25,368 nucleotides of DNA, taken from NCBI GenBank assembly GCA_023245895.1, contig JAHFJJ010000001.1, positions 71,621 to 96,988 on the forward strand. The letters run 5' to 3'. The notes below the pieces were generated by a model. That model saw only the letters and a program-made list of their open reading frames with translations. It made no database searches and had not been told where the DNA came from. This stretch comes from Candidatus Doudnabacteria bacterium (lineage in GTDB: Bacteria; Patescibacteriota; Doudnabacteria; UBA920). Made by a program: the position numbers and the translations under genes. Within the stretch, counting starts at the first letter, position 1; the number at the start of each line of letters is the position of its first letter. Below are positions 2,951-25,368 of the stretch, one piece after another.

Positions 2951-3919
2951 TTAGATTAAACCCCAAATTAATTTTGCCAATTTGTCCGAGTCATGGCGCA
3001 AAAAACTGCGCTTTAATTTGTCGCCGGCTTTCTTTTTTATTACTCCGTCAGACAATAAATCTTCGGCAATAGCCTCAACTTTGGTTTGGGCCAAGGCCTG
3101 AATGTCAGCTTCCACAAACTTTGCTTTTTCCGCTGAATACTTTTTCAAAATATCAGCTCCCGGTTTTTTGTTGTTTGCTAAAACAAGGTCTATTCTGCCA
3201 TTAAGGTATTTCTCCAAGGTCTTAACAAAATCAGAAGCCTTAAAACCATCTGTCTGGCCGAACTTGGTCATAATATTAGTGACAAGGATTTTTTTGGCTG
3301 GTGATTTATTTACCGCTTCGGCCACGCCTTTGACCAAAAGGCTGGGTAAAACGCTGGTAAACAAATCGCCCGGCCCAAAAATTATGGCATCGGCAGAATG
3401 TAGTGCCTTAAGAACTTTTGGATTGGCCGGCAAATTTGGTTTTAATCTTAAGTCTTTAATCTTTAATCTTGTGCGAGGTTCGTCTATATTATGTTCGCCA
3501 ATTACTTTTTTGCCGTTTTCTAAAAGAGCCATCAGAGTTGTAGGTTTCAATGTTACCGGCAAAACAGCCCCGCGGACATTAAGCAATTTGCCTGCCGCTT
3601 CCAGCGCCTGCTCGGGGTCGCCGGTAATTTTTTCCAGCGCGGCTAAAATTATGTTTCCCGCGGTGTGGCCTTCAAGCGAACCGGCAGTAAACCTGTAGGC
3701 AAAAAGCTGCTTGTAAATTTCATCGGTATAAGAAAGGCCAATTAAGCACTGCCGGTAGTCGCCGGGCGGTATAATGCCAAGTTCATACTTTAACCTGCCG
3801 CCGCTGCCGCCGTCGTCCGCGGTGGAAGCAATTACACTATTATTGGACGGATACTTCCTTAACCCCGACAGCAGGGTAAGCGTTCCCGTTCCCCCGCCGA
3901 TTATTACAATATTTTTCAT
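2951..3919 (-). CDS. YvcK/GlmR (UPF0052, CofD-like) family protein
   Basis: The N-terminal KNIVIIGGGTGTLTLLSGL and DDGGSGGRL motifs are typical of the YvcK/CofD family. The six-frame ORF extends to 3952 (TTG), but the ATG at 3919 just before the GGGTG motif is the more likely start. Confidence 0.8.
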   Translation of the reverse strand: MKNIVIIGGGTGTLTLLSGLRKYPSNNSVIASTADDGGSGGRLKYELGIIPPGDYRQCLIGLSYTDEIYKQLFAYRFTAGSLEGHTAGNIILAALEKITGDPEQALEAAGKLLNVRGAVLPVTLKPTTLMALLENGKKVIGEHNIDEPRTRLKIKDLRLKPNLPANPKVLKALHSADAIIFGPGDLFTSVLPSLLVKGVAEAVNKSPAKKILVTNIMTKFGQTDGFKASDFVKTLEKYLNGRIDLVLANNKKPGADILKKYSAEKAKFVEADIQALAQTKVEAIAEDLLSDGVIKKKAGDKLKRSFLRHDSDKLAKLIWGLI

Positions 3920-3947
3920 ATGTAGTGTTCTCAAATAAACAAATTTG

Positions 3948-4025
3948 GACAAATATACAAATCTTAATTATTTCCACAAATATACACAACCGACATTTGT
4001 ATATTTGTGTTGATTTGTATATTCG
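3948..4025. promoter_or_regulatory. cluster of four copies of the CAAATATACA half-site (two direct, two inverted): candidate operator/promoter for the yvcK-like operon
   Basis: Direct copies acaaatatacaa (3949-3960) and acaaatatacaca (3977-3989). Inverted copies tttgtatatttgtg (3996-4009) and tttgtatattcg (4014-4025). On the minus strand the cluster contains an extended -10-like TGTGTATATT. Confidence 0.35.
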
Positions 4026-4031
4026 CGATTA

Positions 4032-5315
4032 CTACTTAATTATTGCCATTTCCTTGCCCACCTCTTCAAAAGCCTTAACCGTACTGTCCATTTGCTCTTT
4101 GGTATGCGCTGATGATATTTGCACGCGAATCCTGGCCTTGCCCTTTGGCACTACAGGATAAGTGAACCCGCGGACGTAAATGCCTTTTTCAAAAAGCGCG
4201 CGGGCCATATTTGCCGCCAATTTTTCTTCAAACAACATCACGGGCGTAATCGCATGCTTACCGTCCCCTCCAAGTGTAAAGCCCAGCTTTTCCATTTCGC
4301 CCCTAAAATATTTGGTATTTTCTTCCAGCTGATTTCTATACTGCGCAAACTTGCTGTCAAAATTCTGTAATACATATAGGGCTGTGGCAGTAATCATAGG
4401 GGGCAAAGCATTGGAGAATAGTGTTGTACGAGAACGCTGATGGAGCACCTGGATTATTTCCTTCCTTCCGGCCGTAAAGCCTCCGCCCGCGCCGCCAAGG
4501 GCTTTTCCAAAAGTTGAAGTTAAAATATCTATCCTATCCATAACTCCGGCCTGTTCAATACTGCCACGGCCGTTCTTTCCCAGCACGCCGCTTGCATGGC
4601 TGTCGTCCACCATAACCAAAGCGCCGTACTTGTCGGCAAGGTCGCAAATTTCTTTGAGCTTGGCAGTAATGCCATCCATAGAAAACACGCCGTCTGTTGC
4701 AATCAATATCCGACGGGGCTTATATTTGCTCCCCTCTCCCCCCTTGTCCGCCATAGCTTTAGCGTCGGCGGATGGGAGAGGGGCCGGGGGTGAGGGTTTC
4801 TCTGGCCTCGATGTCGCCTCCTTTAACTGCCTTTCCAAGTCCCCCATATCCGAATTTTTAAACCTAAACCTTTCTGCCTTGCAAAGCCTAACGCCATCTA
4901 TAATAGAAGCATGATTCAACTCATCAGAAAAAATCGCATCCCCTTCCTTTAAAATAGTTTCAAACAAACCAGTGTTTGCGTCGAAACACGATGTATAACA
5001 AATGGCGTCTTCCTGCCCAAAAAACTTGGCAATTTCTTTTTCCAAATCTTTGTGCACAGTAAGCGTGCCGCAAATAAAACGTACGCTACCAGTACCATAC
5101 CCATATTTATCCAAAGCCTCTTTCGCGGCTCGGGTTAAATCATCGGATGATGCCAAACCTAGGTAGTTGTTGGCACAAAAGTTCAAAAGTGTCTTGTCGC
5201 CGACTTTAATTTCCGTCCCCTGTTTGCCTTCAATAACCCCTTCTTCTTTCCAGGTCCCTGCGTCCTTTATTTCTTTTAGTTCATCTTCAAATTGTTTTTG
5301 ATAGTTTGCGTACAT
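4032..5315 (-). CDS. kbl: 2-amino-3-ketobutyrate CoA ligase (glycine C-acetyltransferase)
   Basis: 427 aa. It aligns end to end with E. coli Kbl (NFCANNYLGL, VRFICGT, LIATDGVFSMDG, TFGKALGGAGGG, ARIRVQISSAHT). It carries a roughly 32-aa low-complexity insertion (RPEKPSPPAPLPSADAKAMADKGGEGSKYKP) that E. coli lacks. Confidence 0.92.
   Translation of the reverse strand: MYANYQKQFEDELKEIKDAGTWKEEGVIEGKQGTEIKVGDKTLLNFCANNYLGLASSDDLTRAAKEALDKYGYGTGSVRFICGTLTVHKDLEKEIAKFFGQEDAICYTSCFDANTGLFETILKEGDAIFSDELNHASIIDGVRLCKAERFRFKNSDMGDLERQLKEATSRPEKPSPPAPLPSADAKAMADKGGEGSKYKPRRILIATDGVFSMDGITAKLKEICDLADKYGALVMVDDSHASGVLGKNGRGSIEQAGVMDRIDILTSTFGKALGGAGGGFTAGRKEIIQVLHQRSRTTLFSNALPPMITATALYVLQNFDSKFAQYRNQLEENTKYFRGEMEKLGFTLGGDGKHAITPVMLFEEKLAANMARALFEKGIYVRGFTYPVVPKGKARIRVQISSAHTKEQMDSTVKAFEEVGKEMAIIK
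4729..4796. repeat. nested GC-rich palindromic element inserted in-frame in kbl
   Basis: The outer inverted repeat cccctctccc (4731-4740) / gggagagggg (4774-4783) is perfect. The inner pair tccgcc (4747-4752) / ggcgga (4767-4772) encloses the 14-nt loop atagctttagcgtc. The element coincides exactly with the extra peptide segment of Kbl. Confidence 0.55.
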
Positions 5316-19433: not shown

Positions 19434-19437
19434 TAAT

Positions 19438-19598
19438 GGGTCTTCTGCCGAATGTCATTTTGACTGCAATTTCAAAATTTCGGCCATTCGACCCAAAAAA
19501 TTTATCCGCTTAACTAAAGTTAAACATCAAAATTTATTTGTGCCGACTGTCTCGAAATTTTGAAATTTCGTTACAAAAGCACATTCGGCAGAAGACCC
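19438..19598. repeat. 161-bp near-perfect inverted-repeat element (MITE-like or structured RNA) filling the ATPase-permease intergenic region
   Basis: The terminal 18-bp inverted repeat gggtcttctgccgaatgt (19438-19455) / acattcggcagaagaccc (19581-19598) is perfect. The inner 15-bp pair is aatttcaaaatttcg / cgaaattttgaaatt. The tip hairpin is ttaac-taaa-gttaa. The element ends 5 nt before the permease ATG. Confidence 0.6.
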
Positions 19599-19603
19599 AT
19601 ACA

Positions 19604-20873: not shown

Positions 20874-20940
20874 TAGCCGCCAGCTCTCCTTGGCTAAAGC
20901 TTTGGAGGACTTATTCGATTATTTATATTCGTTAAAATAG

Positions 20941-20968
20941 AAAAACTCCCCTTTTTAAGGAGGAGTTG
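20941..20968 (-). terminator. rho-independent terminator of the rRNA operon
   Basis: On the minus strand, the hairpin aacuccucc-uuaaaaa-ggggaguu followed by UUUUU lies immediately 3' of the 5S rRNA. Confidence 0.5.
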
Positions 20969-20976
20969 ATCATATA

Positions 20977-21094
20977 GCGGGCAGCCGCCTACTTTTGCGC
21001 ATACATGCGTATGACTATCATTGGCCCGTGCGTGTTTTACTACTGAGTTCGGGATGGGATCAGGTAGGACCACGCTGGAAATGCCACCCTCGTC
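20977..21094 (-). rRNA. rrf: 5S ribosomal RNA
   Basis: The minus strand reads ...GUGGUCCUACCUGAUCCCAUCCCGAACUCAGUAGUAAAACACGCA..., matching the conserved 5S core (GGUCCCACCUGACCCCAUGCCGAACUCAGAAGUGAAAC). Terminal helix I pairs GAGGGUGGC with GCUGCCCGC. Confidence 0.8.
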
Positions 21095-21303
21095 GTACTT
21101 TATTCCGTGATTGGAGAATAAAAAACAAAGAGGGGGACACTTAGATCACTTATTATGGCTTAATTGCATTTACTGTGCCTTGAGTAAGGACGAAAAATCC
21201 GGCTGTTACTAAAAATATAATTAAAATAACCGCAAAAACCTTTAAGTGATGCTTCATTATAAGGGGGTAAATAAATTGTTATTGTACTGTTATGAACATT
21301 GTA

Positions 21304-21331
21304 CTATCCGCCTTCGCTAAAGCTTCGGCGG
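21304..21331. repeat. copy of the short palindromic core element (atccgcc-N14-ggcggat with loop cgctaaagct) in the 23S-5S spacer
   Basis: It has a 7-bp perfect stem atccgcc/ggcggat and a 14-nt loop ttcgctaaagcttc. The kbl insertion has the same stem and loop length and shares the 10-nt loop core cgctaaagct, in the opposite orientation. Confidence 0.45.
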
Positions 21332-21717
21332 ATGACTCTCTACTAAATAAATTATAGTGAGTCACAAATTGCTAGTCAATAGAAATAGAATTAAAATTTT
21401 CGGTTGATTAGTATTGCTCGGCTGAACACATTACTGTGCTTACACCTGCAACCTATAAAACGAGTGGTCAGTGATTAGTGTTTAGTGATTAGTATTGCTA
21501 CTATCCACTGCCCACTGCACACTATCCACTAGTTATGATACGGGGTAGTCTTCCCCGAACCTTTATTATGTATTGCTACATAAAACGAAACCTAGTTTCT
21601 TGGACGGCTTCACGCTTATATGCATTCAGCGCTTATCCTAACTAGACCTAGCTACCCCGCCATGCCGCGGACGCGACAACGGGTACACCAGAGGTCTATG
21701 CATCCCGGTCCTCTCGT

Positions 21718-22569
21718 CACATATTCTTCTGTCACCAGAAGTGCAGACTATATCTTCATCCTATCTTATACCTTAGGCTCCTGGGCCATAGTATTTTTTT
21801 ATGATAGGTGTCGGCGTATTATAGAAATAGTAGAAAGTATAAAGTTGAAAGTTTAAAGTAACTGCAATTGCAGTCCTTTTCACTTTCTACTTTTAACTTT
21901 TAACTACCTTCCATCTCCTCTTTCGAGTCAGTCGTTACGGGGTCAAACCTAAAATCTTAAATAATTCAAGTCCGGTTTTCTTTTTCCGAGTTGCGTAGTT
22001 ATTATTTTGAATTATTGTTATACAGCTTATAATTTTCCTGAGTTCAGATTGCGTAAAATTAGCAATCTTTTTCCCTTCCAGAATTCCGGCTGCTTTATAC
22101 AAAGCCGCAGCTTGTTGCTTCTTAAAACGTATAAATGGAATTAAATCTTTAAGAATGTTTTTAATTTGAGTCACCCCGTTTATACGAAGTTCGCTCATTC
22201 CGTCATTTCTGCGGGATAAGTACCCAATGCCTAAAACTTTCTTAATCCAGAAAAGTTCTGCTTCATGGCGGCTATCCTGATAAAAACAGATAGTGCACAT
22301 AAAACGAACTTTTTTCTTTCCATCTTTGCGCTTTTTGATTTGCAACATTAAGCTGCCGTCTCCGTCTAAAAAGCCGGCAATATAAGCTAAATCAATTTTA
22401 GATCGACTTCCCACGGTATTGTCTTAATATTCTTGGTCCTCAAGTAAATTGTACCATAACTGAAGAACCGTTACAATTATGGTTATCAACGGATGCAAAA
22501 TATATTAAGATTTCACCGTTATTAGCCGAATTTTCAAGGCAGATTACTCTGCCAAGTAGCAAACCCTTT
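21718..22569 (-). other. intron (group I-like, 852 nt) inserted in the 23S sarcin-ricin loop (E. coli U2656/A2657 equivalent)
   Basis: The 5' exon ends ...GCGCAUCCCUAGU (22570). The 3' exon starts ACGAGAGGACCGGGAU (21717). Joined, they restore the universal SRL CCUAGUACGAGAGGACC closed by the AUCCC/GGGAU stem. The intron starts with A after an exonic U and ends in G. Confidence 0.7.
21935..22414 (-). CDS. LAGLIDADG homing endonuclease (single-motif) encoded in the SRL intron
   Basis: It has the LAYIAGFLDGDGS motif near its N-terminus. It is 159 aa with a GTG start, and lies entirely within the intron. Confidence 0.85.
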   Translation of the reverse strand: MGSRSKIDLAYIAGFLDGDGSLMLQIKKRKDGKKKVRFMCTICFYQDSRHEAELFWIKKVLGIGYLSRRNDGMSELRINGVTQIKNILKDLIPFIRFKKQQAAALYKAAGILEGKKIANFTQSELRKIISCITIIQNNNYATRKKKTGLELFKILGLTP

Positions 22570-22699
22570 ACTAGGGATGCGCCCAATCAAGTTTCGAACA
22601 CCCACAGCAGATAAGGACCAAACTGTCTCACGACGTTTTGAACCCAGCTCGCGTACCACTTTAATATGCGAACAGCATAACCCTTGGGAGCTTCTTCAC

Positions 22700-22738
<39 letters not shown>

Positions 22739-23308
22739 TCTCGTCGATGTGGACTCTTGGAGAGGATCAGCCTGTTATCCCTAGAGTAACTTTTATCCGT
22801 TGGGCTTTGCGTCTTCCACTCGAACGCATCGGATCACTAACTTCCACTTTCGTGCCTGCGCGGGTCGCCGCCCTTGCAGTCAAGCATGCTTATGCGTTTG
22901 CACTATCAGCATGATTTCCATCCATGCCTAGCATACCTTAATAAACGCCTCCGTTACCATTTAGGAGGCAACCGCCCCAGTTAAACTACCCACGAGCCAC
23001 TGTCCCAAAGTAGGTTAGACTTTGGTTAGAATTAATATTTTTACAGAGTGGTATTTCACCTTTTGCCTCCATTTGAGCTGGCGCCCAAACTTCAAAGGCT
23101 CCCACCTAGGCTAAACAATAAAAGCATTAATTCAATGACACGCTATAGTAAAGCTTCATAGGGTCTTTCCGTCTTGCTGCGGGTAGACGGCATCTTTACC
23201 GCCACTGTAAGTTCATCGGAATGTTCGTTAAGACAGTTCTCTGCTCGTTATGCCATTCGTGCGGGTCGCAACTTACGCGACAAGGAATTTCGCTACCATA
23301 GGACAGTT

Positions 23309-24044
23309 CATAATGTTAGCTTCATGTTTCCATGAAGTTCAGACTATATCATTCCATCAATTGGATGGATTCGGCGTTTAGTCGTTGAGGGTTTTTACTA
23401 AATGATTCTTTAAAATTTGTTAAATTATGCTTTCGAGTTCTACCTTTTCCTTCATTTAAGTCCTCACGAAGTTTTACTATTTCTAGCAACCCTTCCTGAT
23501 TTAAATGTTGGCTTGCAAAAACTAATCTTGCAATTTTAGAGAATAACGAATAGTTTCTTTTTTTACTAGCGGACAAGAAACCGAACCGGTCAAAGAAAGG
23601 AATTATTTTTTCTTTGAGTGCTGTATGATTTTGGACAATATATTGATGCACGCCATCTTTCCTATGGTCAATGCGACCACAGCCTAAATGATGCTTCAAC
23701 AAAGCAAGTACGGTAATGTCTTTTTGAGCAACATTAAACGTTAATATTACTTGCCATAATACTTTACTGTCGTTTCGTTTACGAAGGGAAACATTAAAGC
23801 TTCCTTCTCCGTCTACAAAACCTGCAAAGTAATTTCCAATTTCAACAGGAATTTGCTTTAACCAATTTTGATCCATAAAGTTTCCTTCTGAATCTTTTAG
23901 TAAATCTTCCCTGCGGATTGACTGTATCTTGTAAATTTTTACTGTCAATTTAATGACGAGTATTACAAGCTTTAAGCACATCAAAGTCCTTTGTGTGCAC
24001 AGTTATTCCCGCAAATAGCCAAATTTTATAACTACAACATGTTC
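23309..24044 (-). other. group I-like intron (736 nt) in 23S helix 69 at the L1917-equivalent site
   Basis: The 5' exon ends ...GGCAGUAACUAU (U at 24045). The 3' exon starts AACUGUCCUAUGGUAGCGAAAUUCC (23308). Joined, they give the H69 loop UAACUAUAAC. The intron ends in G. The junction can slide by 3-4 nt because of the local repeat gaac...gaac. Confidence 0.65.
23349..23984 (-). CDS. LAGLIDADG homing endonuclease (single-motif) encoded in the L1917 intron
   Basis: It has the NYFAGFVDGEGSF motif. The likely true start is the internal Met at 23876 (MDQNWLKQIPVEIGNYFAGF...). The longer N-terminal extension probably reads through intron core sequence. Confidence 0.85.
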   Translation of the reverse strand: MMCLKLVILVIKLTVKIYKIQSIRREDLLKDSEGNFMDQNWLKQIPVEIGNYFAGFVDGEGSFNVSLRKRNDSKVLWQVILTFNVAQKDITVLALLKHHLGCGRIDHRKDGVHQYIVQNHTALKEKIIPFFDRFGFLSASKKRNYSLFSKIARLVFASQHLNQEGLLEIVKLREDLNEGKGRTRKHNLTNFKESFSKNPQRLNAESIQLME

Positions 24045-24814
24045 ATAGTTACTGCCGGCGTTCATCAGGGCTTGGCCGATCGGCTTGCGCCAACCGGTTT
24101 AACCTTCTGACACTGGCCAGGCATCAGCCCGTATACATCAGCTTGCGCTTTAGCACGGACCTAAGTTTTTGGTAAACAGTCGGAGGAGATCTTTCGCTGC
24201 GGCCCTGTACCATTCATTCGCTTACGCGAATTCAGGTGCAGGGCAAGGTATATACCGAAGGTACACCTGCTTTTTTGCCGAGTTCCTTAACGAACATTGG
24301 TCCGGACGCCTTGGGATTCTCTCCCCATCCACCTGTGTCGGTTTACGGTACGAGCACTTTATAACATGACTTCGACGCTTTTCTTGACACCTTGATTCAC
24401 ACTAATCTCCGTTGCCAGATTTTTTTATGCTTTCGAGATTACAATCGCATCAACCATCTCTTGCGAGGTAAGCTGATGTAATATAGGAACTCCGGATTTA
24501 CCTAAAGTTCCACCCTACGAGCACAACAACGCCAATAGTCAGATGACGCTAATGTTATCATGATGCGTCCCGCCTAAGATAATTATAAAGCGGTTATGGA
24601 ATATCAACCATATTTTCCATCGGGTGAACCCCTTGGGGCCCACTCTTAGGATCGACTAACCCAGGGACGACGATCGTTGCCCTGGAAACCTTGGATATTC
24701 GGCGAAGAGGATTCTCACCTCTATATATATTACTTATTCCAACATTCTTACTTGTACACTGTCCACGGCCGCTTACGCATACCGCTTCAGCCTGTGTACA
24801 ACACTCCTCTACCA

Positions 24815-24927
24815 CTTATGCGAAGCATAAGAACAATTAACTTTTAACAATTAACAATTGACCGGCTGCAGACTGCAGTAGTTAATCGTTAATCGTTAAT
24901 TGTTACCAGTTTTTATGCTTCGCATAA
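24815..24927 (-). repeat. 113-nt hairpin expansion segment in 23S (replacing the short helix after the GTPase-associated centre), built of tandem 7-10-nt repeats
   Basis: The base palindromes are cttatgcgaagcataag and tttatgcttcgcataaa. Tandem aacaattaac copies pair with tandem gttaatc copies around the central palindrome ctgcagactgcag. E. coli has only GCGGCAGCGACGCUUAUGCGUUGUUGGGUAG at this position. Confidence 0.5.
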
Positions 24928-25010
24928 ATCCACGTCTTCGGCACCTAGCTTAGCCCCTATATATTGTCGGCGCAGGATCGCTTGACCAGTGAGCTGTTAC
25001 GCTTTCTTTA

Positions 25011-25047
<37 letters not shown>

Positions 25048-25368
25048 GGGCAATCCCACATCCTTTGCACTATAGCTAGGATTTGGGGGCCTTAGACGGT
25101 GGTGTGGATTCTTCTCCATTTGTCTCGTGAAGCTTAGACCTCACGGACTGACTGCCAATTTCTTGACCTTTAGAATTCGGAGTTTGGTTGGAGCCTACCG
25201 CTTGCGCAGCAGGTTTCCATTCAGTGCTCTACCTCTAAAGGGAACAATTGACGCTAGCCCTAAAGCTATTTCGAGGAGAACCAGCTATCACCCGGTTCGA
25301 TTGGAATTTCTCCCCTACGCACAGCTCATCCCCTATTTTTGCAGCAATAGTGGGTTCGGACCTCCCGT

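Follow-up and report, generated by a model that had tools for sequence, protein, structure and literature searches.

A tagged hairpin in the 23S-5S rRNA spacer of a Doudnabacteria genome, probably a copy of a small REP-type mobile element

The spacer between the 23S and 5S rRNA genes of a Candidatus Doudnabacteria bacterium (assembly GCA_023245895.1, contig JAHFJJ010000001.1) contained a short hairpin, which we analyzed together with its surroundings. The window, that is, the whole stretch of 25,368 nucleotides (nt), came from a low-G+C genome of the Patescibacteria and carried its rRNA genes on the minus strand. It was likely that the spacer hairpin was a copy of a non-autonomous mobile element of the repetitive extragenic palindromic (REP) type, about 30 nt long, which we called the tagged hairpin. 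A second copy was located in frame in the kbl gene. The central idea of the initial annotation of this DNA held: copies in coding and in non-coding sequence were linked as members of a single palindromic element whose loop is conserved.

Copies of the hairpin in the window

The spacer hairpin occupied positions 21306-21333, two nt above the 21304-21331 given initially, and read ATCCGCC-TTCGCTAAAGCTTC-GGCGGAT on the plus strand. On the minus strand, which is the strand of the rRNA, it read AUCCGCC GAAGCUUUAGCGAA GGCGGAU. The predicted 7-bp stem and 14-nt loop existed, and the hairpin folded on both strands as expected (-15.3 and -14.2 kcal/mol; z = -3.1 and -3.5). The corresponding 30-nt family unit, which included a 5' tail GTCAT, ran from 21336 to 21307 on the minus strand. 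The hairpin of the kbl gene, GTCCGCC-ATAGCTTTAGCGTC-GGCGGAT at 4746-4773 on the plus strand, was inverted relative to the spacer copy. The canonical 30-nt unit at this site, CTTGT-CCGCC-ATAGCTTTAGCGTC-GGCGG-A (4743-4772, plus strand), was antisense to kbl, stayed in frame and encoded the peptide SADAKAMADK.

The pattern TCCGCC-NN-AGCTTTAGCG-NN-GGCGGA, with 22 specified bases, matched the window exactly twice, in the spacer and in kbl, even when three mismatches were allowed, and it had no match in 100 dinucleotide shuffles of the window. A covariance model built from copies of other organisms scored the kbl unit at 47.9 bits and the spacer unit at 46.6 bits (E about 1e-9, covariance-model E-values being rough throughout). 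These results confirmed that the kbl insert and the spacer hairpin were one palindromic element in inverted orientation.

A third occurrence of the loop 9-mer GCTAAAGCT was found at 20893-20901 rather than at 20905-20913, where it had been placed before. It was embedded in gt-CCTCC-AAAGCTTTAGCCAA-GGAGA (20885-20910, minus strand), between the terminator of the rRNA operon and that of an FtsX-like gene. Judging from its sequence, this site was probably a decayed copy of the compensated-stem (CCTCC/GGAGG) subfamily described below, from which it differed by three changes. Scored alone with the covariance model it was not significant (11.3 bits, E = 0.64). The initial annotation had also regarded the number of 9-mers as above chance expectation (roughly 0.2); the three occurrences were real, but the statistic was weaker than claimed, since the shuffle mean was 0.34 and two of 100 shuffles also reached three.

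The kbl copy could be compared with an empty site. The closest relative of this Kbl (P0002, 89% amino acid identity, locus L142) lacked exactly the 30 nt at 4743-4772. In the DNA alignment with that locus, the window had a clean 30-nt insertion, CTTGTCCGCCATAGCTTTAGCGTCGGCGGA on the plus strand, with no target duplication and with the boundaries of the consensus unit. The relative retained an outer palindrome, CCCTCTCCC-AG-GGGGAGAGGGG, without the inner hairpin, and the insertion site was the apical loop of this outer palindrome. In the window, the older outer element spanned 4731-4796, with the arms CCCCTCTCCCCC (4731-4742) and GGGAGAGGGG (4774-4783) followed by CCGG-GGGTGAGGG. Together with the 30-nt unit it made up the extra loop of Kbl at residues 171-200, which amounted to 30 residues more than in the structure PDB 3tqx.

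This part of the protein was hypervariable. The Kbl proteins of Patescibacteria had a variable loop just before the conserved RILIATDG motif (4716-4805 of the window, minus strand), and the 120 homologues listed (P0001-P0120), some of them truncated, ranged from 372 to 465 amino acids. Those closest to the Kbl of the window, where their source had a name, were assigned to Patescibacteria or Doudnabacteria. Two further Kbl lineages carried independent units in the same protein loop. One of them (L224) had CCTGT-CCTCC-GAAGCTTTAGCGAA-GGAGG inside a different outer palindrome, and the other (L225) had the loop variant CTAGCCTTGGCGGA.

The outer palindrome CCCCTCTCCCCC...GGGAGAGGGG-CCGG-GGGTGAGGG was a repeat of another type; in Alphaproteobacteria and Armatimonadota (L027, L057, L058, L074), too, copies of the tagged hairpin were surrounded by repeats of this type. 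The loop before RILIATDG was an insertion hotspot whose inserts were translated as PSPxPLPxGEG, PSFSKEGxGG, INTDKETDEHG and similar peptides, the footprints of several different palindromic repeat families. At L225, a gene adjoining kbl (1647-1905) had Pfam matches to 23S_rRNA_IVP and bAvd, the accessory protein of diversity-generating retroelements.

Family size, anatomy and insertion sites

Copies of the family were gathered with the strict pattern CCGCC-NN-AGCTTTAGCG-NN-GGCGG from one genome per species (185,579 species, 596 Gb), many of the host genomes being metagenome-assembled genomes (MAGs). The exact core was present at no fewer than 120 loci (at least 120) on 120 different contigs, each from the genome of another species, where about one was expected by chance for the 20 fixed bases. 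The matches listed came from about ten phyla, among them Patescibacteria (many lineages), Verrucomicrobiota, Planctomycetota, Acidobacteriota, Nitrospirota and Armatimonadota. Proteobacterial hosts were Alphaproteobacteria, including cultured Bradyrhizobium and a complete Maricaulis chromosome, as well as Gamma- and Deltaproteobacteria, and those from the Bacteroidota included cultured Terrimonas and Flaviaesturariibacter. None of the 120 matches listed belonged to Bacillota, Actinomycetota, Cyanobacteriota or Enterobacterales. The exact core was also found in 21 viral contigs, and 15 more viral loci had the CCTCC/GGAGG version of the stem, a compensated G-C to T-A change, with the same loop and tail. 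The initial annotation had proposed to look for further copies with a covariance model and to doubt the element if neither copies nor loop conservation appeared in related genomes. Both were plentiful, and that doubt was decisively dispelled.

The unit consisted of CTTGY, a G+C-rich stem of 6-7 bp, the loop G-N-AGCTTTAGCG-N-A and the closing stem. The consensus of 121 aligned copies was g-CTTG-Y-CCGCC-G-(A/T)-AGCTTTAGCG-(A)-A-GGCGG-R; their logo showed a conserved CTTG(Y) on the 5' side and nothing conserved 3' of the R. Instead of CTTGY, the spacer copy of the window had GTCAT, the version of this lineage. The seventh stem pair, Y/R, covaried between T-A and C-G and was paired in 95% of the copies with G.T allowed and in 88% by strict Watson-Crick rules. 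The 14-nt loop, G-N-A-G-C-T-T-T-A-G-C-G-N-A, could be drawn as a 3x3 purine-rich mismatch, two G-C pairs and a YTTR tetraloop.

When the fetched loci were scanned with the loop as an anchor (..AGC[CT]T[CT][AG]GCG.. with at least four flanking pairs), 206 hairpins were recovered versus one in shuffled sequence. The stems, such as GCCTGCC, CCCGGC, TACGCT, ACTGAC and AATTCGCC, were unrelated to one another and numbered more than 20. Since the loop stayed constant while these stems covaried, the loop was the conserved feature of the element, as had been anticipated, and the stem needed only to pair. At stem positions 1-6, G.T was seen 36 times and A.C 12 times, which showed that the hairpin was selected on the CTTG-tagged strand.

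We found no description of this 30-base hairpin family in the literature searched. Text searches with its DNA or RNA string and with the four peptides that it encodes returned nothing relevant, a conceptual search likewise, and the RepRanger paper contained nothing on the hairpin sequence. A BLAST search of the unit against the PLSDB plasmids and the INPHARED phages gave no full-length match, only partial matches of 23 nt in Thermus plasmids and in a helicase gene of syn9. The family was probably missed so far because it was not found in these plasmid and cultured-phage records.

Several copies revealed where the unit enters. One was nested inside another member of the family at GAAGCTTT^AGCGTA (L140) and another at GTAGCTTT(A)^GCG (L026), and a variant unit sat in a REP-like repeat, beside a gene resembling those of REP-associated tyrosine transposases (RAYT), at CGCACTTT^AGTGC (L007). 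Of the four loop insertions that could be resolved, three had entered an apical loop at TTT^AG, in one case the loop of the element itself. A further copy, at 1660-1689 of L007, was not counted as nested because an Ala/Lys-rich coding repeat could produce AGCTTT^AGC by chance. No signal of target-site duplication was detected across 142 copies, and matrices of identity and complementarity between the copies were flat past the seventh stem pair. Outer stems of at least 7 bp surrounded 12.7% of the copies and 7.0% of the controls. Accordingly, nesting in another hairpin was common but not the rule.

Half of the copies (62/124) were located in open frames of at least 150 amino acids. The unit equals ten codons and is open in four of its six frames, which read AEALAKA, RRSFSEGG, AFAKASA and PPSLKLRR. 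In open frames of at least 200 amino acids all four stop-free frames were used, with 27 copies sense and 35 antisense, that is, without a preference for orientation. Nine of the 124 copies were no more than 5 nt from the end of a tRNA, on either side and in either orientation, which was far above chance. One copy took the place of the P3 stem-loop in the RNase P RNA of Sphingorhabdus (RF00010, E = 1.5e-20). The phage contig IMGVR_UViG_3300017528_000210 (41,235 nt; loci L217, L208, L209 and L219) had 12 loop-conserved hairpins in both orientations, mostly in short intergenic gaps just past stop codons, and their stems were of three or four stepwise-compensated types (xCCTCC, xCCTGC, xACTGC).

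Taken as a whole, the copies showed that the unit moves as a discrete block of 30 nt without target-site duplication, enters the single-stranded apical loops of pre-existing hairpins, lands exactly at the borders of tRNA genes and survives at sites that can accommodate ten additional codons or one more RNA stem.

The rRNA spacer and the case for an RNA function

The strongest alternative was a primary function of the hairpin as an RNA element in the rRNA operon. In one version it would be a 5' stem-loop that stabilizes or regulates a transcript started within the spacer, and in another a structure for RNase III or RNase E processing, or for protection, of the 23S 3' end. The layout of the spacer, about 300 nt long on the minus strand, gave this possibility some substance. 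The 23S gene (21388-25368, minus strand) has its 5' part beyond the window end and its 3' two thirds inside; its 3' end, which we take to lie near 21388, was set by comparison with the 23S 3' end of E. coli. Directly 3' of it, a sigma-70-like promoter match (TTGACT-17 nt-TATAAT, 11/12; 21351-21379, minus strand) was located. This block, TTGACTAGCAATTTGTGA, was identical or one base off (TTAACT...) in seven related spacers, and it may be an internal promoter for a microprotein and the 5S rRNA or part of a 23S processing stem. The hairpin began 17 nt past the -10 box, so that it would sit near the 5' end of the transcript of the microprotein gene, perhaps with the 5S rRNA.

The putative microprotein was encoded between the hairpin and the 5S gene (20976-21091, minus strand; covariance-model match, 71.2 bits) by a conserved open reading frame (ORF) of 34 amino acids, MKHHLKVFAVILIIFLVTAGFFVLTQGTVNAIKP (21153-21257, minus strand). 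A hydrophobic ORF of 34-37 amino acids was present in all seven close relatives (L167, L153, L171, L166, L184, L193, L165), many of the differences being synonymous; the orthologues read, for example, MRQHLKVFGLVLLIMLVTAAFFALTQGTVNAIKP in L167 and MFKHNLKILGLMLIILAVTAAFYCLSLGTVNALKP in L171. Its product had no match in Pfam. From its sequence, this ORF looked like a real gene for a single-span microprotein inside the rRNA operon.

For comparison with the spacer, we used 62 metagenomic loci with the same final 21 nt ahead of the 23S 3' terminus. Only three of these relatives (L167, L166, L171) had the hairpin at the same place, all with the 15-nt loop GAAGCTTTATGCGAA, and 59 were without it. 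Thus, the hairpin was not a general rRNA-processing signal, and a general role in rRNA maturation was unlikely for the RNase target that had been suggested at first. Similarly related loci, L153, L184 and L193, had other palindromes or unrelated sequence in place of the hairpin and still kept the promoter block and the ORF. Where the hairpin was present, it was nearly constant. In the window and the three loci, its 31-32 nt differed by one inserted T only. The 28 nt upstream of it, compared between the window and L166, had an identity of about 68%, and the downstream flanks could not be aligned.

This near-constancy amid diverging flanks, the position ahead of a conserved ORF and behind a conserved -10 box, and the preference for G.U-compatible pairs on the rRNA strand all spoke for an RNA element. 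On the other side, the relatives without the hairpin included those that kept the promoter block and the ORF, and the identical sequence occurred in phages and unrelated phyla as well as within ORFs, where it was read in either orientation. The hairpin was followed by AGTACAATG and had no T-run; it was therefore not an intrinsic terminator, and the terminator scan reported only the site of the rRNA operon at 20944-20967 (minus strand). Rfam 15 had nothing at 21306-21333 at E <= 1. For the family, the lack of orientation bias in transcribed regions argued against an RNA function, and the small-ncRNA family considered in the initial annotation was unlikely, given the ORF copies in either orientation and the lack of a match in Rfam. 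We thus considered a primary role as an RNA element of the operon unlikely. As a copy of the mobile element, the spacer hairpin was probably a passenger kept in a small clade, and it may have been co-opted secondarily as a 5' stem-loop.

The spacer and the rest of the window had other features of note. In the spacers of L167 (about 2290-2340) and L184 (about 2455-2505), other palindromes, CTCCGAC-loop-GTCGGAG and CCCGAC-TTTAC-GTCGGGG, were located between the 23S end and the TTGACT block, and the 23S-5S spacer appeared as a landing pad for several hairpin repeat families. The 23S gene of the window contained at least two group I introns with ORFs for LAGLIDADG homing endonucleases (21935-22414, 23349-23984, 21725-21858 and 23320-23528, minus strand), and the two LAGLIDADG ORFs had a stretch of 36 nt in common at 81% identity (22350-22385 and 23797-23832). 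An inverted repeat with 47-nt arms at 24816-24927, rich in TTAACAATTAAC motifs, greatly enlarged one helix of the 23S rRNA and was an insertion with respect to the bacterial consensus, at about model position 1218. Another inverted repeat (19436-19462 and 19574-19600), with 27-nt arms 93% complementary and 111 nt apart, spanned the start of the FtsX-like gene, and A+T-rich 44-nt arms (3919-3962 and 3995-4038) were located between cofD and kbl. The remaining genes were ordinary housekeeping genes. A tRNA scan of the whole window gave none, and Rfam, at its gathering and E-value thresholds, matched only the 23S, the 5S and group I intron fragments.

A mobilizing protein and comparison with known systems

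The selection of one strand, the conserved loop, the tag at the foot of the stem, the absence of target duplication and the insertion into loops together pointed to a single-stranded DNA hairpin that is recognized by a protein. The initial suggestion of recognition by a protein fitted the conserved loop and the freely covarying stems well. In such a mechanism, the selected form would be the single-stranded DNA hairpin, whose loop would be read by a protein acting in trans. As the leading candidate for this protein we tentatively propose a single-strand DNA nuclease or transposase of the HUH type (RAYT/IS200-like or Rep-like), which would cleave and join DNA at the loop or close to it. By analogy, the logic would be that of REP/RAYT systems, of the ends of IS200/IS605 elements and of Rep origins with an invariant loop.

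A search for the enzyme itself was made at several levels. Neither a transposase nor an IS200/IS605 or TnpB gene was found with Pfam among the ORFs of the window, nor any other mobilizing protein. In 120 ORFs flanking copies, no Pfam family occurred more than three times, and no transposase was among the 25 families listed of the 149 matched. When all ORFs from about 1.9 Mb of loci were searched by phmmer with the E. coli RayT as query, there were two RAYT-like matches, one of them intact (L007 3920-4471). The repeats flanking this intact gene were GTAAC-tagged and of different sequence, one of them with the nested variant unit. This locus (L007 3700-4560), from a MAG of the Parcubacteria, was of interest in its own right: its gene matched the E. 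coli RayT at E = 1.5e-9, its repeats read GTAACGCACT-AAAG-TGCGTCATTCC and GGAACGACAGAC-TTTA-GTCTGTTAC, and, as far as its sequence could tell, it looked like a REPtron in the candidate phyla radiation (CPR).

Apart from this missing partner in the window and beside the copies, and the different repeats of the only intact RAYT-like gene, several other observations weighed against a mobile element of the REP type. There were 2-3 copies in the 25-kb window and 12 in the 41-kb phage contig; the exact core, however, seemed to be low-copy per genome, all of its listed matches being on different contigs. The identity of its 24-nt core across phyla would be unusual for REPs, whose co-evolution with RAYT is assumed to be vertical. 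The comparison of filled and empty sites consisted of one clean pair, the kbl of the window and L142, in addition to the nested cases. The many stems within a single phage implied that some copies were old or functionally constrained and not recently transposed, and the better conservation of the hairpin than of its flanks in four lineages could mean a local function instead of a passenger. Orientation relative to the local GC skew was 51:72 (p = 0.07, or 0.03 for loci with clear skew), a strand bias that is too weak to use.

It was very improbable that the copies were the ends or solo remnants of an insertion sequence of the IS200/IS605 type (TnpA/TnpB). The short tag 5' of the hairpin foot and the lack of target duplication resemble both the ends of such elements, from general knowledge, and REPs. 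Against it stood the Pfam results for the window and for the flanking ORFs, the 30-nt hairpin itself as the mobile block and the different repeat adjoining the intact RAYT-like gene. The proposed association with a transposase, IS200/IS605 or TnpB gene thus found no support, with none in the window, none recurrent beside copies and different repeats at the two RAYT-like genes, and this reading was largely refuted for the window. Chance similarity of two G+C-rich hairpins, for which the marginal 9-mer count (three in two of 100 shuffles) might be cited, is already refuted by the shuffles that never yielded the 22-base pattern even with three mismatches, by the covariance-model scores and by hundreds of copies outside the window.

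More speculatively, the family might represent a pan-bacterial class of mobile DNA not yet described, a loop-defined hairpin of 30 nt in about ten phyla and their phages. Its copying into single-stranded loops (TTT^AG) and tRNA borders would be the work of a putative conserved enzyme of single-stranded DNA that recognizes and perhaps cuts the AGCTTT^AGCG loop; in passing, proteins would gain ten-residue loops (AEALAKA, RRSFSEGG, AFAKASA or PPSLKLRR), and structural RNAs such as RNase P RNA would gain stems. Should the breadth that the scans indicate be correct, few mobile sequences of bacteria would be smaller or more widely shared. The family would also account for recurrent low-complexity inserts of ten residues in the predicted proteins of environmental bacteria and for odd stems beside tRNAs and within RNase P RNA. 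The element can serve to mark hotspots of insertion; the Kbl loop, for example, was the target of three independent events. For annotation, copies should be masked before non-coding RNAs, terminators or protein-domain boundaries are called in Patescibacteria and other environmental genomes. The invariant loop and the reproducible insertion point (TTT^AG) make the search for the mobilizing enzyme directly testable.

Several known sequence types were considered and dropped, namely a relic of the tmRNA tag, the ops/RfaH site, boxA, a parS-like double-stranded DNA site, integron attC and the K-turn, as their sequence or the pattern of constant loop and variable arms did not fit. Closer to the tagged hairpin are the origins cut by HUH Rep proteins, such as the nonanucleotide stem-loops of geminiviruses and circoviruses and the CTTG^ATA sites of phiX174 and pC194. 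Both have a G+C-rich covarying stem, an invariant loop, which in Rep origins carries the cleavage site, and the motif CTTG. However, Rep origins are single-copy and located beside a rep gene, whereas the hairpin copies were dispersed and had no associated gene.

The small dispersed repeats (SDR) of heterocystous cyanobacteria, reportedly described in 2008 as "very small mobile repeated elements" of about 21-27 nt, are likewise said to be hairpin-forming mobile units without coding capacity, nested in other repeats and present or absent at orthologous sites. Their sequence is different and they are confined to one cyanobacterial group, whereas the 120 matches listed for the tagged hairpin included no cyanobacterium. 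Rickettsia palindromic elements (RPE), reportedly described in 2000, are said to be selfish palindromic DNA that is found in frame in protein genes and also in RNA genes, and that is tolerated in surface loops. The tagged hairpin resembled them in its in-frame placement in kbl and many other ORFs and in its presence in an RNA gene, at P3 of the RNase P RNA. Compared by description, RPEs differ in being about 100-150 bp long and limited to Rickettsia and relatives, whereas the hairpin unit has 30 nt and occurs in many phyla.

The closest relatives were REPs, palindromes tagged with GTAG or CGTC that are mobilized or maintained by RAYT tyrosine (HUH) transposases (Di Nocera et al. 2013, PMC3733652). 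Both are imperfect palindromes of 20-40 nt in which one side of the stem base bears a short conserved tag, and both have non-complementary di- or trinucleotides between the stem and a short G-C-flanked loop, as in GTAG-3 and GTAG-14 (PMC3733652). Subfamilies with compensatory stem changes and G.T pairs, the occurrence as singletons, dimers and tandem clusters, the presence of some copies in genes and the absence of target duplication are common to both as well. For some GTAG-14 units of Bradyrhizobium, "GCGG/CCGC type loops" as long as 27 bp were reported (PMC3733652), and these may be tagged hairpins nested in the loop of a REP.

On the other hand, the tag of the hairpin family was CTTG(Y) rather than GTAG or CGTC, and the loop was conserved instead of the stem. 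Its one 24-nt core extended over about ten phyla and phages, the exact core seemed low-copy per genome, and approximately half of the copies were inside ORFs and not extragenic. Moreover, the intact RAYT-like gene was flanked by repeats other than the tagged hairpin. Thus, with its CTTG tag, its copies inside genes and a RAYT-like gene that adjoins other repeats, the family failed several defining features of REPs. It is best filed as a loop-defined, CTTG-tagged form of miniature mobile DNA that is REP-like and has an unusually broad range of hosts.

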